Source: Amoebophrya sp. A120 (lineage: Eukaryota; Protista; Dinoflagellata). From it: DNA of 64,000 nucleotides. The notes below the pieces were generated by a model. That model was given only the letters and a program-made list of their open reading frames with translations, made no database searches and was not told the DNA's origin. Positions 158 through 57,384 of this stretch are shown here, piece after piece. Location of the stretch: positions 6,488,828 through 6,552,827 of the forward strand of contig CAJINV010000004.1 in NCBI GenBank assembly GCA_905178155.1, written 5' to 3'. The first letter of the stretch is position 1; every line of letters begins with the position of its first letter. Made by a program: the position numbers and the translations under genes.

Positions 158-819
158 GTCAACTGAGCTTCATGTTCCTCGTGGCGCAGTACATGCGAAG
201 TCAGTTGTTGAACCTGGGTTTAAAGCCGTACACGGGGATATGGAAGCGTCAGGATGGAAATCGTCAAAGTTGAAATAACTTGTAATGCATAAAATCGATA
301 CCAGTTGAAAGCCCAATTTCTAAGCGGTGCGTGACAAATTTTCAGAGCACCGGAATCCAATTTGCCATGCTGTTTGGGCACAGGCGACTGCTTTTGTCAT
401 GCTACTTTAGCAGCTCTATTTCAAACCCTAAACAGGCTGACAGTCGGCCTCACTTGCCAGCCCGGCAAGACAGGCATTTCATGCCTTGCATTTTATGCAT
501 GACAAATCATTTCAACTTTGTCGATTTTAAACCTGACGCGTCCATAGGGGATGCTGATCAAATACCGGTGCGACCGGGCCGTGGAACATTACCCGGAGTA
601 TCCTGTGCAAAAGTATCGTACTCGAACTAATTGCAAATATGTATAACAAATATCCCTTTTTAGGTGAATCAGCATTACAAAATCCATTTTTCCTTTTGAG
701 AAAATTTGTGATGCAATTCATACTAATACGATACTTTCGCAATGCATACGGAGTTTTCCGCGACAATTTTGACCGATTACGCAACCACGATCTCATGGGA
801 AGGACGACGGAGGAATTAA
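158..819 (+). CDS. 3' part of uncharacterised membrane protein (paralog of 6087-8081); 5' end upstream of window
   Basis: Exons 158-238, 552-598, 754-819 after removing two introners give GQLSFMFLVAQYMRSQLLNLGLKPYTGMLIKYRCDRAVEHYPEFSATILTDYATTISWEGRRRN*, colinear with the paralog's last exon; AG acceptor at 156-157 is at the same position as the paralog's canonical intron. Confidence 0.85.
239..546. mobile_element. Introner family A (non-canonical TIR intron)
   Basis: TIR tatggaagcgtcagg/cctgacgcgtccata; TSD gggga/gggga; empty site in paralog at 7895-7899. Confidence 0.93.
599..748. mobile_element. Introner family B
   Basis: TIR tat..tgcaaaagtatcgta/tacgatactttcgca..ata; TSD cggag/cggag; absent from paralog (~7942). 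Confidence 0.92.
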
Positions 820-1547
820 GCGAAGGATGGGCGGGTTTTGAATTCGATTTCGATGTAAGATTGGTAATACTTACCCCGGCGATTTTTAGAAATAAGTACC
901 ACCTGTATGATGATGTAGAAGAGTTCAGGATGGAAAATTCGTTTTCTAGATGAACACGAAAATGTTGTACCACGAGAAATAAACCAGGACTAGTTGCATT
1001 CGAACTTGTGTGTGTAAAAATGCAAACGCTCGCTATGAATTACTTATGTGATGAAGCAGGGCGAAGACGTAGACGCCTCTCCACTACCTCCTTTTTGCGC
1101 AATAAGAGAGTGCTGTGCTGTTTTTTTCGTGTCACGAAAAATTTTTGCAGGGCAAATGCAAGCAAAAACGTCTTAGGGAGAACCAGTATTATCGTCGGGA
1201 CAGCCAAAATGATCGTAGGGAGAACCGGAATTAGTTTCGTTTGCGTCGTAGGGAGGAAAAAAAAGTGTCGTCTGCTGAGCGTACAGATCAAAAGTTTCTC
1301 GTTCGTGATCCGGTACTAGTGGGTGAGTTGGCCGCTTTTCGTTGCAATCGCTTCGTCTTCGCTGCCTCTGGTTGATAGAATTTCATCGGGATATCTCGTT
1401 GTGAAGCTGTGATAAAATAGGTGCAACCACTTCATTGCGTACACAATTCGTTTTTTTGCGAAAGGCAGTATCAAAATAGTACAAAGTCTTCGAGTTGAGT
1501 ATATTTATCCACTGCAAGAAACTTGCGAAAAACAGTACCAGCAAATC

Positions 1548-4169
1548 ATGGCAAACGCCAGTGACGAGTCCTCCCCCTTCCGAAACCTGGTGCGTCTCCG
1601 CGGGACGAGGAAGGCTCCGATAATTATGGTCCGAGAGGAGGACTTTGAGGAGTTTCAAGCGCACAAGGACTTTAAGTCCGCGCTCGCGGCCTTCCTCGCG
1701 AAGGAAGCCCGGATCCGCACCGAGAACCGCAAAAAACGGGCCGAACTGAAACTGCAGGCGCGGCAACGCCGAGCCCAGGAGCGAGCGCAGCATCGTGAAG
1801 CGCGGCGACAAAGGCAGGCGGCAGCGGGCGAGCAGCCCGAGGAACGGGAGGACGAGAGTTCCTCTTCTTCAGAAAGTTTCTTATCCGACCCAGATAAACA
1901 CTTCGACGAACACATCGCGGTTGTGCGCGCGGAAGACGAACTAGTGGTCATTCCGCCCGTGGCGCCCTCCGACGAGAACGCGATGGCGGAGCGGTTGAAG
2001 GAAGCTGCGCAGGGCGTTTCCTCTACTGGGGAGAGCAGTGGTGCACTAGCAGACCAAGACGTACCGGTTATCTCTACCACGTCCGGTAGTTCCGAAGGCG
2101 AAAATGGTGAGCACTACTGCGAAGATAGCCAGGAATGGAGCGGGGGTTCTGCGGGAGAGAAGAAGTCCGACAACCTGAAAAAATGGGAGACTTTTCTCGA
2201 ACAATGCGAAAAAGCGGGGATGGACAAAGTGCCAGAAATGGCAAGCAGAATGCTGCGGGAGCAACACGACCATCATGAAACCAGACACAGAGCACTGTTC
2301 CGGATTGAAAGTATCTTTCAAGGCTACACGAGGAACGCTTCCGACTCAGATAGACACCGGTCGATCGCCATCGCCAAGGCGACGTTGAATGCCGTCCCCG
2401 AGGCGCCGCAGCAAAAGGGCGGGACTTCTAGTGGATTTACCACAACAGGTGGGCTGGTGGAGGACAGCTGGAATATCATGGACGAAGAGCTGCGCTTGCT
2501 ATCGCCAACTCGTGTGGACTTCGAAATTCTCTCCATGAGCGGTGAGGTCATCGCTCGCGGCGCAGCGCCGTGCTGCAATTTACGGCTGACACGCAACAAG
2601 CGCGATTTTTGCGAACTTCGCCCCGAACACATTTTCCGCAGCCTGGTGCAGAAACTCTACGCCGTCTCCGTTCTCCGCTACAGCTTGAGTTTTCAAGCCC
2701 CGCATGCACTGGCAAAATACGCCGTCGATGTCGGGAAACGTCTGGAAGCGGCGCTGAAACTCCCCAAAGGCACGTTTGACGAGACGGCGCTTGTGCACGA
2801 CGGAGAGGTGGGATCGGGTCCAACGGATCATGTTCCGTTTTGGACACCGGAGCGCCTCAAAGCACAAGAGGAATACATCGAGCGAGACGATTGCAGGATG
2901 CTCCTCGTGTTCAAGAAGCAGCACTGGATCTACAAGTCTCAAACGGATGAGAGCGGGGGGGACTGCGGTGAGTGGAAACGAGTCTCCTTCGGCGTGCAGG
3001 TTAGCGTGTGGCAGGGGCGGGTCATCGCTCGCGGCTTGATTACCCGCAGAAAGTCGGACGGGGCGATCATTTTGCCAACGACGTGGCGAAACCACACGGA
3101 GTTTTATTGCTTCGAAAACATGACGTTGTTCGACGACGATGACTACTATGAGGCGCCGGAAGCTGGCGGCGACGAGAGTGCGTTTTGCAGCGAATTCCAC
3201 GTGCTGCCGTCGCGCACATACGAAAGGAATAAATGTGGCCGCACAGCCGAGACCACCTGGTGCGACTCCGCCGCAGAGTGCGCGGAGCAAGAAGGGGCAA
3301 ACCGTGTTGGGATTTACGTGGAGAAAGAGGCGCAGCTGCGCGCAAAGGCGGGCAGTTCGGCCGGCTCCGCAACAAATGCGGAGGCGGCAAAGAACTGGGC
3401 GAGCCAGAGTAAAGTCTATCCGAGCGTCGTCATCCACGAGAACGTTGGCCTGGATGAAGGGGACTACGGGGACTACAGAGTTACCGTTCCGCACAAGAAG
3501 ACGTTCTTCCAGTGCGACTCGGACGAAAACGCGCAAGCGGTGTTTGACGATCTCAAAAGATTTGTCGACTTCATCCAGGGGGCCAGCAAGGAGAAAATTG
3601 CCGCGAAGCACTTTTCGCTTCGCAGCGTCGTGAAGGCCATACCGTGGTTTGACCAGAAGCCAGCGATTTCATCCGGTCCGGTGGGAAACTGGGAACGCGA
3701 CGTTATGGGACTTGACCAGATACGGAGCCACTACCCAATGCGAGATCGGATGCGTCGTGACGAGCCGGCGGCTGCATTGTCAGACGGCGTGTTTGCCATC
3801 TCGAAGGCGTCCGGTGGGGAATTGAATCCGGACCTGGAAAAACCGTCCTTCGGCAAGGCCACGTGGGCCGACCTGGTGCGCGCCGTCTCGCAGCATCGTG
3901 GCGTCGACGGGGAAACGAAGTTCGGCGAGCCGATCATGATCCACTGGGGACCTAAAGCAGTAGTGTCGGATGAACCTGCGGACGCGGAGGAAGATGCGTC
4001 GGATGAAGAGGACGACCGGTCTGACGGTGGCGAGTCGTTGCTATCGTACGGTAACGAAACGCCGCCCTCCGCCCGGGGAAGAGCGAGGCGAGCTAATGAT
4101 AACGTCAGGGCGGCGGGAGAACATATGGGCGACGCAGACTGGCTAGTAGGGTTACTTGGGCCTGGCTAG
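1548..4169 (+). CDS. Intronless hypothetical protein, 873 aa
   Basis: Long uninterrupted ORF with ATG, charged coiled-coil-like N-terminus and acidic tail; no family recognised. Confidence 0.7.
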   Translation: MANASDESSPFRNLVRLRGTRKAPIIMVREEDFEEFQAHKDFKSALAAFLAKEARIRTENRKKRAELKLQARQRRAQERAQHREARRQRQAAAGEQPEEREDESSSSSESFLSDPDKHFDEHIAVVRAEDELVVIPPVAPSDENAMAERLKEAAQGVSSTGESSGALADQDVPVISTTSGSSEGENGEHYCEDSQEWSGGSAGEKKSDNLKKWETFLEQCEKAGMDKVPEMASRMLREQHDHHETRHRALFRIESIFQGYTRNASDSDRHRSIAIAKATLNAVPEAPQQKGGTSSGFTTTGGLVEDSWNIMDEELRLLSPTRVDFEILSMSGEVIARGAAPCCNLRLTRNKRDFCELRPEHIFRSLVQKLYAVSVLRYSLSFQAPHALAKYAVDVGKRLEAALKLPKGTFDETALVHDGEVGSGPTDHVPFWTPERLKAQEEYIERDDCRMLLVFKKQHWIYKSQTDESGGDCGEWKRVSFGVQVSVWQGRVIARGLITRRKSDGAIILPTTWRNHTEFYCFENMTLFDDDDYYEAPEAGGDESAFCSEFHVLPSRTYERNKCGRTAETTWCDSAAECAEQEGANRVGIYVEKEAQLRAKAGSSAGSATNAEAAKNWASQSKVYPSVVIHENVGLDEGDYGDYRVTVPHKKTFFQCDSDENAQAVFDDLKRFVDFIQGASKEKIAAKHFSLRSVVKAIPWFDQKPAISSGPVGNWERDVMGLDQIRSHYPMRDRMRRDEPAAALSDGVFAISKASGGELNPDLEKPSFGKATWADLVRAVSQHRGVDGETKFGEPIMIHWGPKAVVSDEPADAEEDASDEEDDRSDGGESLLSYGNETPPSARGRARRANDNVRAAGEHMGDADWLVGLLGPG

Positions 4170-4689: not shown

Positions 4690-5110
4690 TAAAGCGACGC
4701 ACAAAGGACGGCGAAGTTAAGCGACGAACGACTTGAGTGGCGCACGACATAAGCGAAGCACGACTTAAGCGGCCCACGAGCACGACTTAACGGGGGCGCT
4801 GCTTGAGCAACGCACTACTTAAGCGACGCACGACTTAGGCGGCGCACGACTTAAGCGACGCACTACTTAAGCGACGCACTACTTAGGCGGCGCACTACTT
4901 AGGCGGCGCACTACTTAAGCGCCGCACGACTATACTCAACGCACGACTTAGGCGTCTCATGACTAAAGCGCCGCACTACTTTAGCGCCACACGACTCAAG
5001 CGGCGCACGAGTTATACGACGCATGACTCGAGCCAAGTACGATTGAAGCGCCGCACGACTTATGTGAGGCACGACTTGCGGAAAGCACTTACGTGAGGCA
5101 TTTAGGCAAA
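4690..5110. repeat. 16-bp minisatellite (aagcgacgcacgactt)n, ~25 degenerate units
   Basis: Units at 4821-4836, 4837-4852, 4853-4868 etc. Confidence 0.9.
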
Positions 5111-5214
5111 GTACTTAGGCGAAGTGCTTCGGAGGTGAAGCACTCGGGCGAAGCACCTCGTCCTGGATGCCTCTTCTGGAAATACTAGGCGGCTTCGGGG
5201 GGATCCGGCCCCGC

Positions 5215-5515
5215 GGGGGGCGAGTCGCGAGCGGCGGTTGTGCCGCTGTACAAGGCGGATTAGTGGGACCCGGCCTCGCGAGGGGGCGAGGCGCGAGCGG
5301 CGGTTGTGCCGCTGTACAAGGCGGATTAGCGGGACCCGGCCTCGCGGGGGGCGAGGCGCGAGCGGCGGTTGTGCCGCTGTACAAGGCGGATTAGCGGGAC
5401 CCGGCCTCGCNNNNNNNNNNNNNNNNNNNNNNNNNNNNNNNNNNNNNNNNNNNNNNNNGGGGGGGGGGGGGGCGAGGCGCGAGCGGCGGTTGTGCCGCTG
5501 TACAAGGCGGATTCG
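5215..5515. repeat. ~65-bp GC-rich tandem repeat spanning an assembly gap (N 5411-5458)
   Basis: gcggcggttgtgccgctgtacaaggcggatt recurs at ~5231, 5297, 5362 and after the gap. Confidence 0.9.
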
Positions 5516-6086
5516 GGGGACCTCGACGTGCGGGGAACTCGGCGTAGGGAACTCGGCGTGCGGAGGCAGCGAATTACTTAGACAGCTGTTCGCGGATTGC
5601 AAGTTCCGTTGCAAGCTTGTATTCGCATATCCAAGCACTTTTCTGCTCTCGGTTTTGAATTGAAGAAGCCCAGAACTGCTGTATCGGTTCTCGCCCAATG
5701 AATTTAAACCTCTCTGCTCTGTGAGCGCAAGCAGCTTCGGTTCTTTCTTTCCTCACGGAAAACGCCGCGCGGTTGTTTGTTGCCGATGTGCAGATTTTTT
5801 TCGGTTTGGTTTTCTGATTCGGTTGAATAACGAAACGCTGAGCCCAGGAGAACGCCACTCTTTCCGCTGATTTGCCGATGATTGATGCGTCATTCGTACT
5901 TCACTATGCATTTCTTGTGCACAGGGCAACATGGGAGTCCCTGTGAAGAAAAAATAAAATTAAGAAGCAACTACGATATTTATAAAAACTTTTGTTAGCC
6001 ACAAAGGAAAATTATTACCCGATTACCACTACCTTCATTTTCCCTAAAGTGGTCGCAATTTTTGTGCTTTCTGAAGCAACGCAGCC

Positions 6087-8081
6087 ATGCAGTCCCTGTT
6101 TCGAAATTTTACTTCGCGCGCTCCGCGATTAGAACACTCAAAGGCACTACTTCCCCGCACTTACCCCTCAATAGATTCAGCTTTTTCTTCCAAATCTTCC
6201 CCTGCACCATTGAATAGCAATTTTGTTTTCGCCGGCTCCGCACCGCAACAGCTTGTCGCAGCGACGTTCAGGTCTCAGCTGCGGTCGGTAACAACTACAG
6301 CCAATAGCGCCGTGCAGACACCGCCGCAGAACGGAGCCGCGCGCTCTCCTTCGCTCTGCCACAGGCCACCGCGACCTCGATGGTGTGAGTTTTCTAATTA
6401 CGCTGGCGCTTTTGGGGATCAATCCCTGATCATAAAGCAGCAGCAACACCCGTTCTACCGCAGTTTATTACGATCCGCATCACAACAACAGCTCCGGCAG
6501 TTCTCGAATTTTGCCAATGAGCAGCGGGACCACAACGCAATAAATTCTCCAGATCATCATGATAAAAAAGAGCTACAGCATGCCCGACCTAGTAAGAAAC
6601 AGCCGTTCCGCAAGCAGACGCGGCTCGGCGGCAAATTCCCGACCTTCGAGGAGGCGCAGCAGATGCCCCGGGATTGGCACGAGCTCGATAACGTGACCCT
6701 GTGGGTGCATTGCGGCCCGAAAGGCATCCACGACGCGAACGAAGAGCGCATGATCCGGGAGATTATGCGTGTGGACTGCATTGACTACTCCGAGGCGGTG
6801 CGGCGGCTGCTGGAGATGCAGGAGCACATTATCGGGGGGAAAACCATTTATCTATCAAAAGGAAAAATCCCCCCTCCCCATATCAAAACGAAATTTCTGA
6901 TGCTGGATTTGGGTACACAAATCAGCTTTGTATTGCAGGAAAGCATTGCGGTCAGATCCCCAGGCTAGGGAGGGGCGTATGCGTCTAGTTTTTCAGCATG
7001 GCAAGCGGCTCCGCTTTAGGCCCAGCAGCATGACAAATCGCTTCCACAATGGGGGGGAAGCTTCTGCCCTTGTCTTCTTGCAAAACAAATGTCATTTGTG
7101 ACCTCAAATCAGCAACAGAAATTTTCGGAAGCATGCCTTTTCAATATGGGGGGGGAGATTTTTCCTCTCAATATTATCGCCACTTGGGGCTGCTCCCGTA
7201 CAAGGGGGGGATGCTGTTGGCGGGCATGTTTGGCTTCAGCACGGTGCCGCTCATTTTCCACAAGGAAACGTATCATTTGTAAAACCGTCCCCACCTCCCC
7301 AGAGTTGTAATGCAAATCTGCATGCTGAAAATGTTTGTCGTGCGGAGTCCTATGGGAAGCAGTTTCTATTGGTGTTTCGCGATTTGTGATGCTCAGATCC
7401 GCATGGTATGCTAGATCTGTGATGCTGCTTGACTAGCTAAACACGACTACATTGCGAGCCCGAATTTCTCATGCGCAACTGCCAAAGCTGGTTGATTTGT
7501 GTAGCAGATTTGTCGTCTTGACTCTGGGGTGGGGACGTTTTTGCTCACCATAAAGCGGTGTTGTGGTTCAACGAGGTCTATGTCACGGCCGACGTTCCAG
7601 AGCCGAAGGATTTGGAGACCTGGCTGGAAGTCGGGAGCTTTGCGTGGCAGTGGATGGAACCGTTGATAGGTGAGATTTTTGTTTTCGAATGCAGATTCAG
7701 TTTGGAAGAACGCGAGTCATCAATTATATTTCAGAGAGTTCAACATCATCATCTTTCGAAACAGCTTGTTTCGAAAACCACAATCTGACCTATTCATGCC
7801 AAACAACTACTCACCCAGGCCAGCTCTCCTTCCTGATCCTTGTCGCCCAGTATATGCGAAATCAGTTGCTGAACCTGGGTCTCAAGCCGTACACGGGGAT
7901 GCTGATTAACTACCGGTGTTCGCGCGCCCGGGAGCGGTATCCCGAATATTCAGAGACCATTCTAACGGACTACGCCACAACGATCTCCTGGGAAGGACGC
8001 CGGCGCCCACACGACGTGCCGGGGAAGCAAATGGCCCGGCGACGGTCCGTGCGGCACTCTGCGGATGTCCGGCAGCATTGA
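6087..8081 (+). CDS. Uncharacterised membrane protein with long Ser/Arg-rich, possibly mitochondrial-targeting N-terminus
   Basis: Exons 6087-6852, 7179-7270, 7558-7669, 7819-8081; two introners plus one GT-AG intron (7670-7818); spliced ...GGKTIYRHLGLLPYKGGMLLAGMFGFSTVPLIFHKETVLWFNEVYVTADVPEPKDLETWLEVGSFAWQWMEPLIGQLSFL... Confidence 0.85.
6853..7173. mobile_element. Introner family D
   Basis: TIR tatcaaaaggaaaaatccccc..catat/atatggggg..gatttttcctctcaata; TSD ttatc/ttatc. Confidence 0.9.
7271..7552. mobile_element. Introner family J
   Basis: TIR tat..taaaaccgtccccacc/ggtggggacgttttt..ata; TSD aaacg/aagcg. Confidence 0.88.
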
Positions 8082-8545
8082 CGAGGCGAGAATAATTTTC
8101 CTTGAGAAGCTTTACGTGATAAGTGCAGTGGCACTTTTTCATCATGATGCGCAATTATTCCTAGAAAAGAGTGCGATGCTGAAAAGAAATCAGATTTTCC
8201 AACTGTTTCTGTTTATTCCCACACGCGTTTCAGACCCATCGGATTCGCCATTAAGTCCTTTGACGCAACAAGGCGAAATCATTTTCTAAACGTTGCAAGC
8301 AGGTTGACGAACTTTCTCTTCCCGCGCAAAACCATTGCCACAGTGTTCACAGTAGCTGTTTGCCGTGCCTGCGATGTGATTGAGTCGTGCGACGTTCAAG
8401 GACGATCTGTGATCGCGAGTGTCTGTTGCTGTCGAGTGATCATGTTGAGAGGGCAAGATAAATTACTTACTTCCTTCTATCTGGGCTTACTAGAATGAGA
8501 ATTCCGCCAAATAAGCTACAGCGTTAGCCAAGAGACGCATAAAGA

Positions 8546-8660
8546 ATGTCGGCACCTGCTTTCCTCCGGGCGTCGTCGCGGTCCGCGCCCCAGGAAGGTG
8601 GAGCATTAATATTCTCTACTTCCGGAGCATCGCCGTTCCAACTCGGTGAACGGAAAGGCG
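8546..8660 (+). pseudogene. Truncated duplicate of the 5' end of the LRR gene (9691), lacking the family A introner
   Basis: MSA...PQEG...STSGASPFQLGE matches MSA...PQEGAFCTSGASPFQLGE; similarity is lost downstream. Confidence 0.65.
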
Positions 8661-9690
8661 CTGACAGAGGGGGACTCCGCGACGGGGGAGACCAAAGCGC
8701 TCCTCTGGGACGTCAACGCTTGCGCATTGCGCGCCGAAGTGCCTGTTCTGAAGGGACCCTCGACCGATGAAGAGGCCAAGGTCCTCAGCAGCCGGGTTTG
8801 CGGGATGTCAGCCACGTTGATGCGGCCACTTTCCTCGCCGCTGCAGGTTTTTTTACCTCCGCGCCTGCAGAACGTGCTCCACTCTGCCGCCCCACTGGCA
8901 CAGGAGCTGGCGGGAAGGTTCTCGGAAGCGAGCGCGTGGAAGGCCACGCCGCCGATTAACGTCGCTGCTGTCCTGGGTAACATGGGGCGCGATGGTATGG
9001 CGCGCCAAAGTTTTTGGAGTTGCGCGCGACCGCCCCCGCGCAGCCCGACCGAGCCCCGACCCGCCCCTTGAGGGGGCGCCCTTGATCCGTCCCACTCTTT
9101 GCAGCGCCCTGGGGCTAATATTCCTCTCTGGCTCAAGAAGAAGGCTGTGAGCAGGAAAAAGAGTGGAACGGGGTCGCGGCCGTTGGGCCGCAGCCCCGTT
9201 TTCGCGCGCGGCCGCCGATATGCGCGTCGTCGCGGTTTTTGCTTCGCAAAACGCAGAACGCAGCGATTGATTACCGTATCGCCCGACCGGGCGCGGAATT
9301 CATACAAGACAGAGTGATGAAGCGACGAAGAATCATGCGGAGCGTTGTAAAGTCAAAAGGGAAAGCTTAGAGGCGGCCAGATGATAGGGCTCCAAGAGGG
9401 GCTCGTAGCTACAGCTCCGGCGTCCACCGGGCGCTGTTTTATTTGTCTTTTTAGTCAGTACCGAAGAAGCTTGTGCTAGATTGTCTTTCTAGCCAGTAGC
9501 GAGAGTCCATCGAGCAGCTGTGTGTTGAGGTCTGTGTCTGAGTGTCTCTCAAGTGGTGCCCACGCTATCAATTATCAAATCTTCCTAAATTATGCGTCCG
9601 CACGTCTAGTATGCGGCAGACCTGTGAAAAACAAGTTTCTATTGCTCTTCTACTCGGACGCGTCGGAGGAAGGTCAAAAGTAAGTATACC

Positions 9691-12600
9691 ATGTCGGCTG
9701 CATCCGTGCGGGCGTTGCGGGTGCCCCAGGAAGGAGCTTTCTGTACCTCCGGAGCATCGCCTATGGGAGTGTCAGGATCGAAATCGACCAAGTCGAAAAA
9801 TATGTAATGCATAAAATGCAGGGTACATAAGGCCTGTGTTGGAGAGGAGGCAAATGAGTCCGATTGCAAGCCTGTTTATCCCTAAACATGTACTGCCAGA
9901 GTAGCAGCGTGACAGATTGGATTTTGGTGCTCCCAAAATTTGTCATGCGCCAGTTGGAAACTGAGGCTCCAACTGGTATCGATTTTATGCATCACAAATT
10001 ATTTCGATTTTGTTGATTTCGATCCTGACGCTTCCATATCCCCGTTCCAACTCGGCGAGCTCGACGAGAACCAGCGGTATGACCGCAGTTGCGAACTCAA
10101 AACCGGCCGTATTACAATGAAAAATGCCCCCACCCCCAGCTTGGCAGCATTTGTAGTGCAGACCTTTCCAACAGAAACATTCCCCGTCTTGCATATCTCA
10201 GCATGACAAATTGTCCATGCTGAATAGGTCAAATTTGTGTTGCGAAGTAGCCTAACAGCAGCCGGATCTGTTATGCACAAGGCACCTTGATGCGCACCCA
10301 GATTCTGCATCAGAAACGCTCGCAATCCTTTCATGCATAGATAAAAAGTTCTTCATTTGAAAACCTTATGCGTGACAAACTTCTGCAAATTCCTGGGTGG
10401 GGGCATTTTTCATCGTAATAGGCCGGTTTCTGCGTCGCGGGCAGGCGGAGCTGGTGAGCTCGCAAGTCTGCTTCCGCCGGGACCTGGGGATTGCGACCTT
10501 CACCATGCTCTGCATCGCAAATATGTCTCGATCGGGAAAATATGGAATTTGTGATGCTAGCTTTCGATTATACAAAAACCTGTATTGCATGACCAGCAGA
10601 AGCTGTTCAGACCTTTTCCAAAGCTGTTCAGACCTTTTCTCATGCAGGACAGGCATGAGCAAGCCTTCGCGATGAAGCCTGTGATGCTAGAGCATGCATC
10701 AGTGACATTGCAGGCCCTGTAAAATCTGCATGAGAAACTCCCCGAATCTTCCAGACCCAGACATTTTTGCATTTGATACATGCCCGCGCCCTGTGCTCAC
10801 GTGTATGACCGGCTGCCGATAGAGGTATAATTTGTTGATGGGAAGTGTTGGTGTAAATTTGTCATGCTGGAATGCACAACAAGAGGTATTTGTCATGCCA
10901 AATTTGCACAACATCTAAGGTCCGCCCGGATTTCTTCAAGCTGTACCAGCGGATCAAAAACCCAGTGGAGTCTGCGCAGGCGTTATCCGGGGACAACTAT
11001 GTTGAACAACCTCACGACACCTTTTCCTCCGAGGTGATGGTGGCCATGCTGCTGATATGCTGTGCAAAAGTATCGTATTCGTATTGCAATCATGCATTAC
11101 ATATCTTTTTGTTAAGTCAAATCCGCATCACAAATTTCATTTTTCATCCTGCGGAAATTTGTAATGCATTTATACGAGTGCGATACTTTTTCAATGCATA
11201 GCTGACCAAGCGTCCCCCGGGGAAAGCCAGTACTTCGCACAGCGGGCGGGCGCGCGGGGGGAGTAGTGGTAGTGGTAGTGGTAGTGGAGGAGTGGTGCAG
11301 CAGGTTGCAAATATGTCGAATTCTTGTTCCACCAGTTGTACCAATGCATCCGGTATCAACTGCAAAAATGTCTAGGTCTGGAACGTTGCAAGACTTGTCA
11401 TGCAGATTTTCCATGACCTATGAGGTAGAGGTCTGGAATGCGAGACCCAGCATGACAGACTCTTTGAGGTCTCTGTCATGTCTTTCCTGCACGAGAAACT
11501 CCCTCTCAACTCGGTCAAAAGCGGACAGCTTTTGGTACTCACGCAACACAGATTTTTGCATGATTCAGATTTAGCATAACAGGTTTTATTCTTCCAGACC
11601 CAGACATATTTGCGATGCATATCCGGCAAGACGACCTCCTCGATGAAACCGCTGATCACCCTCCCGGCCCGGCAGTTGCAGCCGAACATGAAGCGGCTCT
11701 CGATTCAACTGGACTTATGGACCGCAAATATGTCTCGGTCTGGATGAATGGAAGGTTGGTCATGCACATTTTGCATGACCCATGATGTCTGTGATGTATG
11801 CTCGAGCATGACAGGTTTTGTGAGGGCTTCCTAATGTTGCCTATACCGCATGAGAAATGCACCCTCCGCGTAGCAGCTACTGGACTCCCCTCGCTGCCCA
11901 TGCAAAAATACAGGTTTTTTCTAGAATCGAAAGGCAGCATCACAAGTTGCATCCTTCCAGACATCCAGAGAGATTTGCACTCCATAGGACTCCCAGGCGT
12001 ACTACTCCTGTTGCAAAGTCGACAAAATCTGCCCGGAACTGGAATTGGCCAACTGGGTCGAGTATGCATTGCAAATATGTCTGGGTCTGGAAGAACGCAA
12101 CTTGTGATGCTAATTCTGGATAGTGCGAAAATCTGTGTTGCAATCTTACCAAAAGCTGTCCACTTCTGACCAAGCTGAGAGGGAGTTTCTCAGGCAGACG
12201 AGGCATGATAGAGGTCGGGGAGAATCTGTCATGCTGGGTCATGTATGACAGACCTCACGCGCCATGGAAAACCTGCATGACAAGTCTTCCAACCTTCCAG
12301 ACCCAGACATATTTGCAGTTGATATCGAGATTATCAAGACGTTCTCCGTCGAGCACGGCCGGTTCGGCAAGTCCGCAAGGCGGCAGGGCCCACACGTCAG
12401 GCGGATTTCCTTCGACGGACCGGACTTGGACAAAGTGACCACGGAGCAGCGGAGATTGTTGTCCACTGCGGACCACGAGGAAGCTCTCCGGCGCGACTGG
12501 ACCCGGATCTGCAACGGGAAGCTGATGCAGGTGCGGACGGAGAAAGCGGCAATTGCGCGGAAGAAAATTTTATGGATTGTAAAAATGTCTGGGTCTGGAA

Positions 12601-39565: not shown

Positions 39566-39803
39566 TGTCAACAAAGGTCCTATCGTTCGGTCATTTCGTG
39601 GTCCAGGTCGTCATGTAGTACTTCAAAAGAAAAACTCTTCCACAAAACTTTTGTACCGCCGCACCAACTGAGTGCAGCGAGCGTACCAAACGGTAGGGAC
39701 AAGTTCAAGTAGTTCCCGCGATCAAAGACCACAAGCTCAAGCCCCGCCGCGTCAGATTGGCATCGCACAGCAGGAGGTTTTTGTTTCTGGTAATATCGGA
39801 GAA
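39566..39803 (+). repeat. Diverged non-coding duplicate of the region just upstream of the PFK-like gene (43101-43260)
   Basis: Shared blocks atgtcaa.aaag.tccta...ttcggtcatttc, gatcaaa.accaca, gccgcgtcagattg, ggaggtttttgtttct. Confidence 0.7.
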
Positions 39804-40780: not shown

Positions 40781-41734
40781 ATGGCGCCCCTCTTTCGTCG
40801 CGTACTTGCCGCTGTTGGTGCTGCCATGTCTCTCCACTTGCGCGGAGAATTACTATTCGGCGCGCTCCTGCTGGGCGGACGTGGTGCTTTTGAAGCTTCT
40901 TGGATGAATGCCAGCCACTCTGTTCACCCGTTCGTGGTCGCTGTCCGGGTGCGGTTAACATCTCGGCCGGGAAGCAGCAATGATGGCACCCCCCTCGGGA
41001 GGAAGGCAGCTGGATCTCCCGAGTCAGAAGTTGGTGGGGGGCGCCGCAGCTTGCGTGGCGAAATAGGCAAAAATCTGCCCTCCGTTACGCCAGGGAATGC
41101 TGGAGCTGTGGGAAGGAGCGCTCCTCGTGCTGACGGAGGTCAGGGAAGTCGCCTACTGAAAGAGTCCGCGAAGGCCGCCTACAGGGGGCTACTAGACGAG
41201 TGCAGGAGAAAAGGCGACACGAAAGGCGCGAGACAGGTGTTGCAAGATATGGAGGCTGCGAATATCGTGCCGGATGTCGCCTGCTACAACTCTTTACTGG
41301 CCGCCTACGGCAACAGCAAAAACACGGCTGGCGCGCGACGGGTATTGAAAGATATGAAGGCCGCGAATGTCGTTCCGGATGTCGTCACGTACAACAGGTT
41401 AGTCAACGCGTACAGAAAAAGAGGCGACCTGGACGGCGCGCGGCGGGCGTTTGGGGAAATGGAGGACGCGGGCCTCGTGCCAAACGCCGTCACCTATCGG
41501 CACATGATGGGAGCGCACATAGCTAAACATAAACGAGACGGCAGCGATGCCTGCGAGGATATCGAACAGGTCTTGGATTTGATGGAGGTGGCCCGCGTGG
41601 AGCCTGATCGCGCCATATTCACTGCGATGATTGACTATTATGTTTCTTCCGGCAGAAAAGAGCAGGCCAAACTATTACGGGAGGTGTATGACAGATGGGA
41701 GGGCCAGACGAGCAACTTCACACCTACAGTTTGA
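40781..41734 (+). CDS. Pentatricopeptide repeat (PPR) protein, intronless, with hydrophobic N-terminal leader
   Basis: About 5 35-aa P-type repeats: PDVACYNSLLAAYGNSKNTAGARRVLKDMKAANVVPDVVTYNRLVNAYRKRGDLDGARRAFGEMEDAGLVPNAVTY. Confidence 0.9.
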   Translation: MAPLFRRVLAAVGAAMSLHLRGELLFGALLLGGRGAFEASWMNASHSVHPFVVAVRVRLTSRPGSSNDGTPLGRKAAGSPESEVGGGRRSLRGEIGKNLPSVTPGNAGAVGRSAPRADGGQGSRLLKESAKAAYRGLLDECRRKGDTKGARQVLQDMEAANIVPDVACYNSLLAAYGNSKNTAGARRVLKDMKAANVVPDVVTYNRLVNAYRKRGDLDGARRAFGEMEDAGLVPNAVTYRHMMGAHIAKHKRDGSDACEDIEQVLDLMEVARVEPDRAIFTAMIDYYVSSGRKEQAKLLREVYDRWEGQTSNFTPTV

Positions 41735-42254: not shown

Positions 42255-42555
42255 TTCGTTGCTTTGCTTTTTTTCCTTGGCTATCTTCTCTTTTATCTAT
42301 CTTGTAGTTGTAGGCCACTATTATTTTTTTCCTCTTCCATATCCATTGCCATTGCCGTTTTTCACCGTTGCCATTGCTGATTTCGCGACCAGGCGGTCGT
42401 TTTCGACCGTCTGGTGTGACGGCGTGGAGCTGGAGCCTGATCGCGCCATGTTCAACGCGATGATTGACGACCATCTTGCTTCCGGCAGAGAATGGAAGGC
42501 CGACCTATTACAGCAGATGGCAGAGGCTTGCTTTGAGCCGGACGAGTCGCGCTAG
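42255..42555 (+). pseudogene. Rearranged fragment duplicate of the PPR gene 3' end and its downstream region
   Basis: 42424-42513 encodes VELEPDRAMFNAMIDDHLASGR, matching VEPDRAIFTAMIDYYVSSGR (41597-41680); 42255-42385 resembles 41815-41925. Confidence 0.7.
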
Positions 42556-43312: not shown

Positions 43313-46300
43313 ATGTCGGAACTGATTCGTCTTCGTTCTATGGAGCGGCCCGTGCTGCCACAAGTCTTGAAAGGCGCGGTCGTTCCGGTGGAAACGGGTA
43401 GTTCGTTTTCTTCCTCTAGTACAAGCTCCACAACATCACCGGCTAAACAGCAGAAAACAACTCCAGTAGCAACTGTATCATCCACCGCATGTGAAAGAAG
43501 CGGAGGTGCGAAGAACGCAGGTTCTAATTCCTCGCAAGTAGAAGTAGACCACGTTCAACATCAACATCTCTCCCAGCCAGACAAGCCGCCGCCCATCATC
43601 CAGCTGAAGTGCTCCCCATTTGGCGCGTATGAAAAGCAGAAGTGCTCGATCGGCGTCCTCCTCGCGTGCGACCGGTGTCCCGGGGCCGGGACGGAGAACG
43701 TGATTCTCGGCGTGCAGCAGCGCGTTGCCTCCTCGGTGACCAGAGGGATGTCCGGCCGGGCGGTTGGGTTTCTAGACGGATCGGTGGGGCTGATGAAGGG
43801 CAACTATATGAATCTAGAGAGTACTGGTGGAATTATAGGTGGTGGCACGAGCAGTAGTTCATCTGGCGGGGGGGCGTCTTCATCTTCATCAAGCCATTTT
43901 CCCTCGTCGTCTTCCACGAGTCAATATCTCAACTGCGGTATGCGTTGCAAATATGTCTGGGCCGGGAAGGATGCAACTTGTCATGCTACCTTTGGAATCT
44001 ACATAAAATCTGTATTGCATGAACAGCAAAAGAGGCGCAATTTGTGCTACGCGGAGAGGTGGGTATTTCTCATGCGGTATGAGCTGCATCAGAAAACCCT
44101 CACAGAATCTCTGACGCTCGGGCATGCATCACAGACTCCATGGGTCATGGAAAATCTGCATGACAAACTTCCAGACCCAGACATTTTTGCATTTCATATG
44201 CGGCGGTGCCCGCATGCTGGGTTTCAAGCCGTTCCGCGGCAGAATTTCCGACCGCGACATCGCGAAGATCGCGCAGCGGTGCCGGGAGCTGGACTTGCAG
44301 GGCTTAGTGATCGTCGGCGGGCTGGAAGAGGTGCTCGCGATGCAGGAAATCGCCGACAAAATCAACAACTTACCGCCGGAACTCATCGCGCAGGCAGCAG
44401 CATCAAGCTCAACATCTGGGGCGGCGGGTAATAATAGTAGTACGAGGGGCACTACAACTTTTACTACTGTCGGCACTACTAGCTCTTCCTCGTCGATGCG
44501 GAACAGCAGTAGTCCGGTAACCAACGCGTTCTCGCAGCCGCGAACGCCGAACACGGCGGGGTCGGCTTTCGCGAGCGGGAGGGAAAGCAAAACCACGACA
44601 CCCGGAGGACCTGCGGCACCGGGTTCGGCAGGCCCAAGTTCCGCCCAGGTTGTCGTAAACGACCAAGCGTTATGGATTGCAAATATGTCTGGGTCTGGAT
44701 GATTGCGAGACTCGTCATGCATATTTTCCATGGCCCATGATGTCTCTGACGCATGCCCTAGCATCACAGATTTAGAGGGCTTTGCGATTATGCCTCTGCC
44801 GCATGAGAAATGCCCTCTCGGCGTAGCCCAAACTAAAGTCCTCTTGCTGGTCATGCAATACAAACTTTTTTAGAATCCAGAGACAGCATCACAAGCTTAG
44901 AATCTTCCAGACCAAGACACTTTTGCACTTGATCAGCGTTCAATATGCCCATGAAAACCAGTCCGAACCAGGCGCAGACGCCAAACAGCAGCCAAGGCCT
45001 CGCGCAGCAACTGCAAAATGCAAATCCAAATCCGCCCACGACGCAGCCGCACCACGTCACAATCGTGGGGGTTCTCCAGTCCCCGAACCGCACTGTGAGA
45101 CTTCCCCCCTACGTGCCTGTCACGCTCGGGTTCGACTCCGCAAGGGGAGTTCTGTCTGAGGTCGCCGGGAACATTTCGGTCGACGCCCTTTCCAGCGGGA
45201 AGTTCTACCACTTTATCCGCTGCGGGTCGACGGCGGTCACCCTGGAGATCGCGCTGCAGGTGGAGCCGACCATCGTGATTGTGAACGAGGAGGTGAAGAA
45301 TGGGAAGCAGTCGCTGACCGAAATCGTGAAAAGCATCGCGGAGCAGATTTTGAAAAGAAGAGACGAATTTGGTTTGAATTCCGGGGTTATTTTACTATCC
45401 GACGGATTGGTCGAGAACGGGCTGGTGCAGACGGAGATTTTGAAATCCGAAATCGCACATCTGCGGAAAGCCTTCAAGGTCCGGACCGAAGCGGAATTGT
45501 TGCTCGGCGGCAGTAGTAGTAGTTCTACTGCGACAATTATATCCGGCTCGTCGACCAATTTGCTCGCAGACCGGACAACTTCCTCCGCGTCGCAATTGTC
45601 TTCCGACGCAGCAGGTAGTTCTGCTGGTGCAGCAGGTCCACCCGCACAGAACAAGAATCCCGGGCTCTCTCCCGCCTCGCGCGAGCTGTACGCCATGCTG
45701 CCGGCGGACTGCCGGCAGGCGCTGCTGTTTCGGGATGACGTGCGGGGGGAACCGCTGTTGCCGCAGGTGGACGCGGAGAAGTTGCTGGCTCGCCTCGTCC
45801 GGGAGGTATCCAGGAAAAAAATTGTGTAAGTGTAACTGTGTAGGAAGAACAGCATTACAAAGTAGCTTTGCATTACAGGGAAAATCTGTCATGCGCAGCT
45901 AATACGTGGAAACACGTATGAAAGTAGCGTATGACGCAGATCCAGCATGACAAGTGTAAACAGTTTTGCACTTTCTGCATCACAGATCCACACTCACATA
46001 GTTTTTTTCTTGCATAGGAGGCTTTGTCCCACGACTGGGCGGAATTTATCCCGCGGTACCACAACATCGCGGTCGAGGGAAGGTTATCAAATGCAAAAAT
46101 GTCTGGGTCTGGAAGATTGGTAAGTTTGTCATGCGGGTTTTCCATGACCCACACGGTCTGCCATGCACGGCCTAGCATGTTGACAGGTTCTGTGAGATCT
46201 CTATCATGCCGCTCCTGCATGAGAAACTTGAGTCTAAACTTGTTCAAAAGTGGACCTCTTTTGGTAATCATGCAACACAAATTTTTCCACGATCCAGATG

Positions 46301-49300
46301 TAGCATGACAAGTTACACTCTTGTTCCAGACGCAGACATGTTTGCAATGCATAAAGGTGTCCCGTCCCCACGCAGTTTGACGCGACGCTGGGCTGGGCGT
46401 TGGGGCACTGCGCGGCGGCCTTGGTGCAGAGACGACAAAACGGATACATCGCCTGCGTCACGGACTTGCTCGAGTCCCCGCGGATGTGGCAGGCCTACGG
46501 GTTGCCGATGAAGACCCTGATCGAGCAGTTCTTCCAGCCGCAACAGGCGGTCGGCGGGACCACAGCAGGTTCTTCGGTAGCTTCCACGATCGAGCGGAGC
46601 TCCTGGCGTGACTCTGCCGCGGGCAATACGCCATCCTTCTCTGTCTCCCTGGGAGCCAAGTCGGTGGAGGAGCTGCGGAATTCAAGAACGACCACAACGA
46701 CGACCCCGATTTTTAGTACGCTGAACAAAAGAGCAGATGTTGGCAGCGGCGTAGGCGCAGCAAGTACGGCATCGAGGTCGGTGAGCTTCTCGACAGAGGC
46801 GCGTGGTGGTACAACAACTTCTTCTACCGCTGGGCTGCAGTCCTCCAGCAAGGCGGGGGGTCATCAACAAGATCCAGCAGGAGGAAATCACACGAGAACT
46901 AGTACCAGCCCCACCAGTTCCGCGCTCGCGCAGCGCAACAGAAGCATGCTGGTGGCCAGCAGACCGCTAGCATTACAAACCTACCCGGTGTACACCGTGT
47001 ACAAGGAACTCGCGGACGAGTGGGCGGTCCGGTTGTCCGTCCGCCAGCCGGGCCCGACGCAATTCGGGATCAAGGGGGACGGGGTGTTTCGCGGGACCTT
47101 GATGTACGCGACGAACCTGGACTATTCGTATTCCATCTTGGCAGAATACGTCCCGTACGCGAAGCTACGGGAAGCCGCGGTCTCGCACAACAACTCCACT
47201 GTTCTTGCTGACCCGATGGAACAGCAGGGCTTGCTGAACCACAATAGCAGTTCCGCCCTTGCCGGTTTCTTCAACGCGTCTGCGGACAGTGTGCGAAGCT
47301 TAGTGCAGCAATCGCAAAGAGCATCCTCTTCGAACTGGGCTCAAATTGGCCAGTCGCAGCCAATTTTCCCGCCGCCGGAAGAACAATCTACTGCTCAAGA
47401 GCAACTTGCTCAACATCAAGAGAATTATGCTATAGCGCAACCGCCGAGCAGCATCAAACCGCCGGACCCAGCGGCGCCAAAGGTCCGGAATCTGCAGAGC
47501 TTCGAAAGCCGGAGCGACTTCTCCAGCGGCTCGGTTTCCAGGAGTTCTTCGTCCGTAAGCGACGACACGAAAGACGCGGCTATGCATACTGTGAGGAAAA
47601 ATCCCCCCTCCCCATACTGAAAAGGTATGTTCACTTAGAAATTTGTGATGCTGATTTGTGACCACAAATCCTGTCTCCCTTGCAAGAAGGCAAATCCAAA
47701 GAATCCCTCGCGTTATGGCGGCGATTTGTCATGCTGTCTCACCTTCATGGCAGGCCTCTGCTATGCTATGCGCCTACAACAAAACACCCCTCCGCAGGCT
47801 GAGGCTTTGATTGCCTGTAGTGCTTCACTGCAAGACAGGGCTGATTTGTGTACACAAATTCAGCAACAGAAGTTTCCGTTTCGATATGGAGGGGAGGGGG
47901 GATTTTTCATTTTGATAATGCAGGTGGTTTCGAAAACGTTGAAGAAGTCCAGCTCTTCGAGAAGCAATCAGAAGATGAACCAGGAGAATAACGAGCAGAC
48001 AAAGGGAACAAATGTAACAACAAGCAGTAACAACAAATTGCGGATCCAAACACAAGACGCCTTTCTCCCGCGCCTCCGCGAGCTCACGCGAATGTCCGAC
48101 ACGCAGCGGCGGCGGGTGCAGTACCGACCGCATCTGCCCCAAAGTCTGCTCCAGTACAGGCTAGTGGACCGCGACGGCTATGGGGTTTGTTCGGAACTGA
48201 AATTTTTGGAAAAACTCTTCCCGGCGACCCACAAGCTGAAAGCCATTCGCGTGGACGACCCGGTGGTGAAAAGGATGGAAAGTAGTGCGGCGGTGACGAG
48301 AGATGTGAGCGTCACGTCAAACGTGGGCGGCATCGTGGGAGCACCAGCAGCTGCAACGGCTTCTGGCGGTGCAGCTGGTGCTGGTTCAGCATCTTTGAAC
48401 CCGCAAGCAACGTTGAGTTCTTCATCTGGAGCTGCACCGAGTTCCTCGCAGCCTTTCCAGTTTTTGCCGCCGCCGCGAGAGTCGCAGGCTACGACAAACT
48501 ACAGCGGGGTCATGACGCATCCCGCGTCCTCGTCTTCCACAACCCGCGGCCCGCAGGGCCGGCGCACGAAACCGTTGAAGCTGGGGATCGTGTGCCTGTC
48601 CCGCGTATCAAGTGCAAAAATGTCTGGGTCTGGAAGAGGAAAAACATTTGTCATGCAGATTTCTCATGACCCATGATGCCTGTAATGCATGACCTAGCAT
48701 CGCAGACTTTCAGAGGGCTTCCTGATGCACCTTCCGCATGAGAAATGCCCTGGCCGTGTAGCACAAACTGCAGCCCTCTTGCTGGTCATGCAATACAAAT
48801 GTTTTTACAGTTCAAAAACAGCATGACAAGTTGCAGTCTTCCAGACCCAGACATTTTTGCAGTTGAGACCGCGAGGCCCCGGGGATTCACAACGCGGTCT
48901 GTATCAAATGCAAAAATGTCTGGCGGGTCTGGAAGACTGCGAGATTTGTCATGCTTGTCTGGGATGACCAAAAAGTTTGTGATGCGTGTCTAAGAAGAGA
49001 CCCCTGTTGCCTGTCATGCAAAAACGCAGCTTATCGTGAGAAAAACGCAACACAAAGAAGCGCAGATATTTCTCATGCTTGGCTGTGCATTACAGAGCAT
49101 TTCCTATTCCCAACGCAGCATCACAAGTTTCCAGACCCAGACATTTTTGCATGTGATAGTCTGGGGCGCGCTGCGGTTCGTGCAGGAGAACGCAAGGGAG
49201 GTCGCCGCGGCGCGGGAGCAAATGTTCGGCGGAGGAGCAGACATGCATTCTTCTGGAAGCATGAGCGACTTCGCACCCTCCCCGCCCTTCTCGACGAACG

Positions 49301-50053
49301 CAATTGCCGAAGCAGGAACAACAAGTGCGTCGAACGTAGCAAATTATAACCAAGAAGACCACAACTTTGGGCCGGGTGCAGCAAGCCCTTCGGCGCAGCC
49401 AACTGGGCACTTGTACGGATTCTTGGGCGGGGGACGGGGTCTGTGTGAACGGAACTTCATCGAGATCGACGAGCAAAGGTTGCTACCCTACTGCAACCAG
49501 GCGGGGCTGGATTTGTTGCAGCGGTCCGATTTCGCGGTGACAAGGACGGAAGCGAATCTGACGAAGGTTGTGGAAACAGTGTTGTCGTTGGAATTAGACG
49601 GGCTCTTGGTGATTGGAAACAGCCAGTCCCACCCGGAAACGGCATTTTTGGCCGAGTACTTTCTGGAGTTCCGGGTGCCCTGCGCAGTGGTGGGGATACC
49701 GGCCAGCTGCGAAAACGATCTACCCTTTGTGGAGCAGGTACAGATACTTACTACTTCAACATCCATGGTTTTGTTCTTTCTTATGCTGATGTTTATGTGT
49801 GCATTTCACCACCTTCATTTGTTTCAGTCGCTCAAACAGAAACCGTTCTTTCGTGTTCATCTTCGTCTAGAAATAATAAAAATAAGTACCTTGTCCAAAA
49901 AACCTCCACAGTCCCTTGGCCACGACACCGCCTGCAAAGTTTTCTCGTCCATCATCGGGAATCTCGGTGCGCATGCCGCCAGCACGAAGAAGCACTGGTA
50001 CTTTATCCGTGTGGCTGGCCGGTCCGTTAGTCGCATTGTGAACGAGTGCTGTC
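43313..50053 (+). CDS. PFK: Two-domain phosphofructokinase (PPi-PFK family)-like protein, catalytic motifs degenerate; 3' end not in window
   Basis: Spliced motifs NCGGARMLG, LDLQGLVIVGG, TLGFDSA, FYHFIRC, EGRCPVPTQFD, GIVCLSREAPGIHNAVWG, LDGLLVIG, VVGIPASCENDL, SLGHDTACK, WYFIRVAGRS; 7 complete introners, one GT-AG intron (49738-49911), then a split introner. Confidence 0.85.
43939..44198. mobile_element. Introner family K
   Basis: TSD tgcgg; inside the NxGG motif. Confidence 0.92.
44671..44934. mobile_element. Introner family K
   Basis: TSD agcgt; right terminus TA>TC. Confidence 0.86.
45807..46016. mobile_element. Introner family L
   Basis: TSD ggagg; close homolog of 13885-14094. Confidence 0.9.
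46085..46353. mobile_element. Introner family K
   Basis: TSD aaggt; inside the EGRC motif. Confidence 0.92.
47587..47917. mobile_element. Introner family D
   Basis: TSD atgca. Confidence 0.88.
48606..48868. mobile_element. Introner family K
   Basis: TSD ccgcg; right terminus TA>GA; followed by a ~28-nt microexon. Confidence 0.87.
48902..49158. mobile_element. Introner family K
   Basis: TSD gtctg. Confidence 0.9.
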
Positions 50054-50192
50054 TATGGCTTGTAAAAAGGTCTGGGTCTGGAAGATTCTGCGACTTGTGA
50101 TGCATGTTTTTCATGCGCCATCATGTCTGTGATGCATGCCCTAGCATCACAGATGTTTTGAGGGCATCTTGATGCGTATTCTGCATGACAAA
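50054..50192. mobile_element. Left half of a family K introner, interrupted
   Basis: Starts tatggcttgtaaaaaggtctgggtctgg after TSD ctgtc; colinear with 23556-23819 up to ctgcatgacaaa, then stops. Confidence 0.85.
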
Positions 50193-57360: not shown

Positions 57361-57384
57361 TAATGTTTCTCCAATGTGGCGCCA

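Follow-up and report, generated by a model that had tools for sequence, protein, structure and literature searches.

The window analyzed here, a stretch of 64,000 nucleotides from the marine parasitic dinoflagellate Amoebophrya sp. A120 (assembly GCA_905178155.1, contig CAJINV010000004.1, positions 6,488,828 to 6,552,827 of the forward strand), harbors seven plus-strand genes, designated A to G, which are interrupted by short, repeated inserts with inverted ends. A relaxed scan, the inserts of which span positions 239 to 49158, recovered the 54 complete inserts and one split copy that had been recognized in an earlier, sequence-only reading of the window; the complete inserts measure 145 to 331 bp and total 13,642 bp. 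A strict scan returned 33 TAT..ATA pairs that were enclosed by an exact 5-bp repeat and had inverted matches at 10 or more of 20 positions, as opposed to zero to four in each of 30 shuffles. All 54 inserts lie within the start-to-stop spans of the seven genes and none in approximately 12 kb of intergenic DNA (p ~4e-10). Removal of each insert together with one repeat yields long frames in genes A to G (2, 2, 25, 2, 11, 5, and 7 copies, respectively), which agrees with the seven continuous open reading frames (ORFs), one of them with 25 inserts, of the earlier reading.

Gene A, of which only the 3′ part is present (144-953), is a paralog of gene B and contains copies 1 (239-546) and 2 (599-748), each flanked by a perfect (5/5) repeat and each matched by an empty site in gene B. 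Gene B itself (6087-8081), whose first exon matched no Pfam family, carries copies 3 (6853-7173) and 4 (7271-7552; repeat 4/5) and a GT-AG intron at 7670-7818. At 8545-8670, the beginning of gene C is present a second time on the plus strand, apparently as a gene fragment, and presents an empty site with a single repeat for copy 5. Gene C (9691-22078), which corresponds to the annotated protein P0001 (1872 amino acids, with a weak LRR match), combines copies 5 to 29 with four GT-AG introns (10825-10919, 14376-14494, 17585-17766, and 18880-19022), in line with the earlier remark that ordinary introns and inserts share genes. Its copies are located at 9762-10038 (copy 5; repeat 4/5), 10110-10420 (copy 6), 10509-10778 (copy 7, which starts with TCT and is nevertheless not in P0001), 11056-11200 (copy 8), 11354-11621 (copy 9), 11716-11986 (copy 10), 12063-12324 (copy 11), 12571-12823 (copy 12; repeat 4/5, of which the protein keeps the left one), 13258-13514 (copy 13), 13558-13821 (copy 14), 13885-14094 (copy 15), 14617-14928 (copy 16), 15175-15496 (copy 17), 15565-15735 (copy 18), 16002-16236 (copy 19, which ends in ACC, has a 4/5 repeat and is not in P0001), 17098-17368 (copy 20), 17422-17567 (copy 21), 18495-18767 (copy 22; repeat 3/5), 19159-19422 (copy 23), 19490-19742 (copy 24), 20106-20324 (copy 25; repeat 4/5), 20380-20540 (copy 26; ACA end), 20572-20730 (copy 27), 21081-21351 (copy 28; repeat 4/5), and 21587-21846 (copy 29; repeat 4/5).

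Gene D (22777-25704) encodes 778 amino acids once copies 30 (23177-23493) and 31 (23556-23819) are removed, and its last exon matched no Pfam family. Gene E (28211-34760), annotated as P0002 with a stop inside copy 40, specifies a nucleotide-diphospho-sugar transferase domain and contains copies 32 (30572-30888), 33 (30965-31114; repeat 3/5), 34 (31966-32219; predicted 28-bp terminal stem, z -5.8), 35 (32277-32542; repeat base 3 mismatched, left repeat kept), 36 (32612-32821), 37 (32908-33123), 38 (33246-33523; TAC start, repeat 4/5), 39 (33579-33789), 40 (33882-34163; repeat 1/5), and, past the annotated stop, 41 (34219-34474) and 42 (34534-34742). No insert is present in the first 2.36 kb of this gene (28211-30571), while the final 1.5 kb of its coding sequence contains 11. 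Gene F (36192-39184), which encodes a Maf1 domain, has a GT-AG intron at 36444-36657 and copies 43 (37163-37415), 44 (37537-37800), 45 (38025-38303), 46 (38408-38723), and 47 (38814-39093; ATG end). Gene G (43313-50053), of the phosphofructokinase family, contains copies 48 (43939-44198), 49 (44671-44934; ATC end), 50 (45807-46016), 51 (46085-46353), 52 (47587-47917; TAC start), 53 (48606-48868; AGA end), and 54 (48902-49158) and a probable GT-AG intron at 49738-49911, and runs into the split copy 55, whose left part occupies 50054-50192 and whose continuation, at 58302-58359, lies beyond an approximately 8.1-kb repeat-rich insert, with its right end outside the window.

The inserts are uniform in architecture. 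As the earlier reading had stated for nearly all copies, they begin with TAT (51 copies, with TAC in 2 and TCT in 1) and end in ATA (49 copies, with variants in 5), and are enclosed by an outer 5-bp repeat, perfect in 36 of the 54; at the sixth repeat position, matches were not above chance (13 and 12 of 54). Between 12 and 22 of the 22 terminal positions are complementary, and A occupies insert positions 11, 12, and 13 in 46, 49, and 49 copies, respectively. Several families of terminal inverted repeat (TIR) are present, as previously described, while the former count of about 13 is replaced by 14 or 16 to 17, depending on the clustering threshold. An internal 8-base motif common to all families occurs at 147 sites in the 13.6 kb of inserts versus 5 in the 36.4 kb outside, and an Rfam scan of the window gave no matches. 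Across the window and the additional loci introduced below, insert lengths fall into classes near 150, 210, 255 to 280, and 310 to 330 bp; the largest cluster, at 149 bp, is near nucleosome core size, and copies are crowded 26 to 120 nt apart.

The exon at 16247-17095 is 100% identical to P0001 and that at 28211-30571 to P0002, both annotated Amoebophrya sp. A120 proteins. As characterized in the portions of Farhat et al. (PMC7789003) drawn on here, A120 introners possess inverted repeats that open with TAT, followed by seven loose bases and a run of A, within direct repeats of 3 to 5 nt; 29,850 copies of about 240 nt, in many families, are mixed with GT-AG introns. The window copies share the inverted repeats of 8 to 20 nt at the intron ends, the signature of TAT, a loose seven, and at least three A, the direct repeat (here 5 nt), and the repetition in families. 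The exon identity and this signature match together mark the window as a sample of the published A120 system, and by sequence the inserts are the already known introners of Farhat et al. 2021 (PMC7789003), in agreement with their earlier identification as Amoebophrya inverted-repeat, direct-repeat introns. Whereas that publication, in the same portions, describes variable repeats and broadly variable splice motifs, a single geometry, namely, a 5-bp duplication and the loss of insert plus 5, applies to nearly all copies in the window. Removal in either orientation, the maintenance of the +5 frame where repeats do not match, the invariant U, and the sliding of motifs, all detailed below, were not found in the literature consulted, although figures S19 to S25 of PMC7789003 and the data sets of PMC12130899 may hold some of these.

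For larger samples, a second assembly was employed, comprising 149 loci (487 kb) of metagenome contigs with the accession prefix JACKZZ01, from 15 of 64 parts scanned, which were picked via the main TIR motif; the same motif gave no matches in viral contigs. The copies in these loci belong to the same families as those of the window, with 74 to 95% identity. For one exon of the second assembly, the best match was an A25 protein of Amoebophrya (52%), with no A120 match among the proteins of 451 to 2000 amino acids; the assembly may or may not be that of A120 itself. When insert ends were located solely from TIR positions 4 to 25 and repeats matching at 4/5 or better were required, 320 copies were obtained, of which 265 were confidently oriented by codon usage and 55 were set aside; in the control, the plus strand was called for all 54 window copies.

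At 33 of the 34 junctions reached by P0001 and P0002, the insert and five bases are gone, in accordance with the excision of insert plus one repeat proposed in the earlier reading. This applies to all 25 copies in gene C and to the first 8 in gene E, and includes copies with TCT or TAC starts and ACA or ACC ends. Both proteins would derive from the gene models of PMC7789003, described there as built from transcript alignments that do not force GT-AG. Eight of the removed copies have G on both sides and could be perfect GT-AG introns three bases shorter, an option used in none of the eight, whereas the four ordinary GT-AG introns of gene C are spliced out. Copies 13 and 34, which are 91.6% identical head to tail and thus lie in opposite orientations, are each removed. 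The neglect of available GT-AG sites, coupled with this orientation independence, supports a route other than ordinary GT-AG splicing.

The position of the junction is ambiguous within a perfect repeat, which allows an average of 6.6 equivalent placements. Among 251 copies with such a repeat, a GT-AG placement exists for only 14, which bears out the earlier statement that most inserts lack such ends. Aligners slide ambiguous junctions toward the best GT-AG match. When the best partial GT-AG placement was chosen for each copy, 58 noncanonical types resulted, with six of the nine predominant A120 motifs (Table S4 of PMC7789003) among the top seven and the remaining three at ranks 19, 26, and 32. 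Much of the reported motif diversity is, therefore, probably one architecture viewed through an ambiguous junction, and the motifs of Table S4 were set aside as evidence of cut position since sliding gives similar ones.

More can be learned from imperfect repeats. The left repeat was kept at all seven mismatched repeats that change a residue, and the most informative mismatch places the crossover after repeat base 3 or later; the single base-5 mismatch that was compared with an ortholog is synonymous, so that bases 3, 4, and 5 are not told apart. Repeat mismatches were synonymous in 27 of 48 cases, an excess with a p value of 0.08 to 0.01 depending on the null, which may or may not reflect a variable cut position. 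A scarcity of mismatches at repeat positions 4 and 5 in the window (4 of 23, p 0.02) was not replicated in 252 other copies, the larger set being even over the five positions (14, 15, 12, 16, and 10). At locus L017 of the second assembly, comparison with the A25 ortholog showed three gap-free junctions, including those of copies ending in ATG and ATC, the fourth being unaligned.

The loss of insert plus 5 would not depend on the identity of the repeats. Of 29 intact-ended copies in which the repeat matched at 3/5 or less, the frames on the two sides could be called confidently in 13; removal of insert plus 5 is implied by 11 of these (p 0.0002 against one-third), in a calibration in which 160 of 169 perfect-repeat controls did so. 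The flanking frames of window copy 40 imply the same, even though it is kept in P0002. In 11 of 13 cases, then, the frame follows insert plus 5 even where the repeats no longer match. Copies with intact ends whose flanks match at no more than 2/5, or which carry exact 7- to 8-bp repeats, occur more often than expected from point mutation of such a duplication (L007 5323, L033 3379, L053 1804, L067 4892, L061 561, L063 4097, and L149 294 in the second assembly and 33882 in the window).

A strand-specific constraint is also apparent. The first T of the insert is kept in 265 of 265 oriented copies of the second assembly and in 54 of 54 in the window (319/319), whereas its mirror, the final A, is kept in 255 of 265 and 51 of 54 (306/319; combined p 0.0002). 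When repeats down to 3/5 were admitted, the figures were 338 of 339 for the first T and 324 of 339 for the mirror A. The background runs in the opposite direction, as sense-strand changes in the TIRs comprise 44 T>C versus 28 A>G. The A at position -3 from the insert end was changed in 2 copies versus 9 for its mirror (p 0.065), and at other TIR positions in the main family, no comparable strand-specific constraint was found, except that position 15 of the 3′ end changed more often. That one U is invariant on the transcribed strand only indicates that sequence is read as well as structure.

With respect to structure, the folding z score was below -2 in 51 of the 54 window copies, with a predicted pair probability of 0.78 to 0.95 at positions 9 to 22 and of 0.4 to 0.65 at positions 1 to 7. 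Singleton changes affected 1.3% of positions 1 to 3, 1.9% of positions 9 to 25, 2.0% of internal motifs, and 3.2% elsewhere, the TIR values being biased downward by detection, and compensatory pair changes numbered 11 versus 3 expected. An excess of G-U over A-C mismatches in the window (56 versus 36) was not replicated in the larger set.

The 5-bp repeat can be assigned to the insertion event itself. Gene B lacks copies 1 and 2, the corresponding gaps of 313 and 155 bases being equal to insert plus 5, and the fragment at 8545-8670 has a single repeat where copy 5 sits, its far flank having been read directly from the sequence rather than placed by an aligner. These paralogous empty sites identify the repeat as a target-site duplication. 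Both orientations were observed in all 11 clusters of the second data set (e.g., 18/15, 9/7, and 11/7). The inserts accordingly have the properties of miniature inverted-repeat transposable elements (MITEs), being short, noncoding, and present in either orientation, with a target-site duplication proven by empty sites. The TIRs, the 5-bp duplication, the two orientations, and the shared internal motifs would point to mobilization in trans by one family of DNA transposase.

An autonomous element was not recognized within the window or the loci, and the parts of PMC7789003 used here report no transposase for the A120 introners. Nine long candidates (457 to 1888 bp) in the 487 kb of loci consisted of ordinary copy ends around unrelated DNA, in which no transposase ORF was recognized by eye, no Pfam scan having been made of them. 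Elements of the Ginger/TDD or Transib type have TGT..ACA or CAC..GTG termini and duplications of 4 to 6 or 5 bp. The duplication length of the inserts fits such elements, and their TAT..ATA termini do not. An A120 TIR family with integrase-like ORFs, which lacks Ginger termini, is described in the part of PMC12130899 used here. As regards the choice of target, gaps of 120 nt or less separate 27 of 46 neighboring inserts versus 14.9 expected, with none below 26 nt, and no local hopping was evident, as 7 of 28 close neighbors are of the same family against 5.3 expected. In 147 of 305 cases, the first base of the repeat falls on codon position 3 (p 2.5e-7), a bias which is partly accounted for by a palindromic target preference and leaves a residue of p 0.004. 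Our literature search returned no paper joining introners, target-site duplication, intron phase, and the nucleosome.

Based on these findings, we propose, at about even confidence, that the inserts are nonautonomous TIR transposons which are removed by a dedicated stem-and-ruler route outside ordinary splicing. Through cuts staggered by 5 bases, a transposase would insert noncoding copies in both orientations, the duplication and the orientations being observed and the enzyme presumed. In the pre-mRNA, pairing of the ends is predicted along a core of approximately 17 to 20 bp at positions 9 to 27, leaving a loose loop at positions 4 to 7 and a weak UAU/AUA cap, and the opening U of the insert would be recognized together with this predicted terminal stem. 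The 5′ cut would fall toward the end of the left repeat, following base 3, 4, or 5, as bounded by the seven mismatched repeats, and the 3′ cut at the equivalent point of the right repeat, such that the original exon is rebuilt, which is the net result present in the gene models. Judging from the reading frames, both cuts would be set by distance from the stem and not by repeat identity. The exon halves would then be joined outside ordinary GT-AG splicing, as has been proposed for Euglena nonconventional introns or as in a precise form of SOS splicing. A more specific version, that of a precise, spliceosome-independent system tuned to the 5-base stagger, in which a U-opening TAT..ATA stem is cut out with five flanking bases and the ends are religated, probably by an RtcB-type ligase, is put forward tentatively and is more probably wrong than right.

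Several observations weigh against this proposal. The evidence for excision consists of gene models whose source pipeline (Farhat et al.) is itself presumed; P0002 reads through copy 40, the only copy of the window whose repeat is broken, and stops inside it, leaving copies 41 and 42 unreached, and this retention fits a requirement for a matching repeat. Two of the 13 poor-repeat copies depart from the +5 frame, and one old copy starts with GAT (L065 945-1211; repeat 3/5). With an A next to it, the invariant U is just as similar to the U at +2 of a spliceosomal donor. The low rate of change in the TIR core and the compensatory pairs can also be explained by transposition, and the numbers of G-U and A-C mismatches in the larger set (201 versus 185, and 38 versus 39) reveal no bias at the RNA level, a failure that weighs against a claim of selection for an RNA stem. 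The earlier suggestion of a second, structure-guided splicing route is upheld in part, namely, with regard to a non-GT-AG route; guidance by structure and separateness from the spliceosome would both be features of the model.

Because of that resemblance to a donor site, a modified U2-type spliceosome operating without U1, in which the stem would stand in for recognition by U1 and U2AF, is the main rival, a possible if rather doubtful explanation. The intron would then start one base before the insert, which would place the U and A at +2 and +3, the 3′ site would be chosen by distance, and the branch point would be the A at -3 of the insert, 7 to 8 nt before the junction. The invariance of the first U with A next to it and the rarity of change at the -3 A are as this account expects, and, according to the parts of PMC7789003 used here, the U1 small nuclear RNA was undetected in A120, while U2, U4, U5, U6, and most spliceosomal proteins are present; furthermore, in tunicates whose introns are 95% non-GT/AG, splicing is reported to rely on an altered spliceosome (PMC13326754). 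However, such a machinery leaves unused, in eight of eight cases, GT-AG pairs located one base outside the insert, no junction base is preferred beyond a weak target bias, the asymmetry at -3 has the same direction as the background T>C bias, and the main family shows no further comparable strand-specific constraint in the TIR, save at position 15 of the 3′ end. If introns with NT-AN ends were instead spliced conventionally, each comprising the last base of the left repeat, the insert, and the first base of the right repeat (+3), every insertion would add one residue and keep the frame; 12 of 53 copies would read GT-AG, and eight of the nine predominant A120 motifs in Table S4 of PMC7789003 do read NT-AN. 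Yet neither P0001 nor P0002 has the extra residue at any of their 33 spliced junctions, so that the gene models contradict it, the A25 ortholog is free of gaps across the three L017 junctions, and sliding accounts for most of Table S4, which renders this reading scarcely credible.

Other accounts dispense with splicing altogether. A hairpin with a short direct repeat is a classic substrate for skipping by a polymerase or a reverse transcriptase. The inserts could, in principle, be bypassed in this manner, either by RNA polymerase, which would skip the hairpin and re-anneal via the direct repeat, or by template switching of reverse transcriptase in the cDNA libraries, and the retention in P0002 of copy 40, whose repeat is broken, is what skipping predicts. 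We consider it improbable, as a first-strand switch should, by our reckoning, keep the right repeat rather than the left one that is kept in seven of seven cases, as the +5 frame persists in 11 of 13 copies whose repeats do not match, and as repeat mismatches are evenly spread over the five positions. Moreover, 44 of the 54 copies contain stops in all three sense frames, yet the genes are open, which requires removal in the cell. Excision from DNA in some nuclei or at some life stage, comparable to that of ciliate internal eliminated sequences, would be expected to remove precisely the insert and one target-site copy regardless of orientation, just as is observed; it would not be expected to constrain the first U on the transcribed strand of otherwise symmetric ends, and the inserts are in place in two assemblies, which makes it very unlikely.

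A tested precedent for paired motifs with fixed spacers is provided, by analogy, by the nonconventional introns of Euglena, which, in the sections of PMC12501133 used here, follow the code N3-CDG / CH'G-N5-6|R, a paired motif with fixed spacers of 3 and 5 to 6 nt whose factors are unknown, and which are excised as circles (PMC11282704, likewise in part). Common to both systems are paired terminal motifs at a fixed distance from the cuts, slidable direct repeats, and coexistence with GT-AG introns, and a MITE-like origin has been proposed in Euglena as well (PMC12501133). In contrast to the Euglena CDG / CH'G motifs, the window ends read TAT/ATA, the total spacer is 5 rather than 8 to 9 nt, no purine rule was seen, and the Amoebophrya copies form young, repeated families; a fixed spacer is indicated here indirectly, by the +5 frame in 11 of 13 copies and a cut after repeat base 3 or later. 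SOS splicing, as reported for C. elegans and human cells in the part of PMC12779559 used here, which does not mention Amoebophrya, removes transposons from mRNA through pairing of inverted terminal repeats and with dependence on RTCB, AKAP17A, and CAAP1, rarely at GU-AG and with a dispensable transposon interior, but imprecisely, leaving indels. The Amoebophrya inserts are similarly DNA transposons with inverted terminal repeats removed rarely at GU-AG; unlike in SOS splicing, removal is frame-exact in the gene models (net zero at 33 of 34 junctions), in which minor isoforms are invisible. The terms RTCB and AKAP17 are absent from the PMC7789003 supplement text, the A120 proteome not having been searched, and no paper combining SOS splicing and introners was retrieved in the literature search. 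The MITE-type introners of Micromonas, Aureococcus, and Polarella (PMC9860276, PMC12130899, and PMC7789003, each used in part) resemble the window copies in their TIRs, target-site duplication, and strong bias toward genes, although those of Micromonas and Aureococcus carry or co-opt canonical splice motifs, which the A120 inserts do not.

If the spliceosome-independent reading were true, A120 would possess an exact, genome-wide form of SOS splicing that is convergent with the Euglena system, and exon insertions of a whole transposon superfamily would be made harmless. The jumble of reported motifs would be reduced to one rule, that is, a stem, an opening U, and five bases, which makes directly testable the mechanism by which tens of thousands of elements of the PMC7789003 type leave the mRNA. 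An enzymatic process separate from the spliceosome would amount to a programmable, scarless intron and to a second protist case beside Euglena, while a spliceosome without U1 would imply that the splice-site signals at both ends can be dispensed with in favor of structure and distance.

All nine genes between positions 1 and 50053 are on the plus strand, as in the unidirectional clusters reported for Amoebophrya, and two of them are free of inserts and introns, namely, 1548-4169, which encodes an 873-amino-acid protein without a Pfam match, and 40781-41734, which encodes a PPR protein, a decayed piece resembling the end of which is located near 42420-42550. Tandem arrays of 16- and 65-bp units surround a 48-N gap at 4717-5563, and the interval between genes D and E (25900-28100) is GC rich (70% at 26001-28000), unlike other intergenic DNA. 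Within split copy 55, the approximately 8.1 kb at 50193-58301, which contain tandem arrays of 174-, 44-, 13-, and 12-bp units, represent either a large nested element or an assembly join and break the phosphofructokinase gene, whose 3′ part lies outside the window. A second insert follows after 58359 and contains intronless ORFs of 663 and 657 amino acids (58624-60612 and 61088-63058), which gave no Pfam match, appear paralogous by eye, and display Cys/His clusters.

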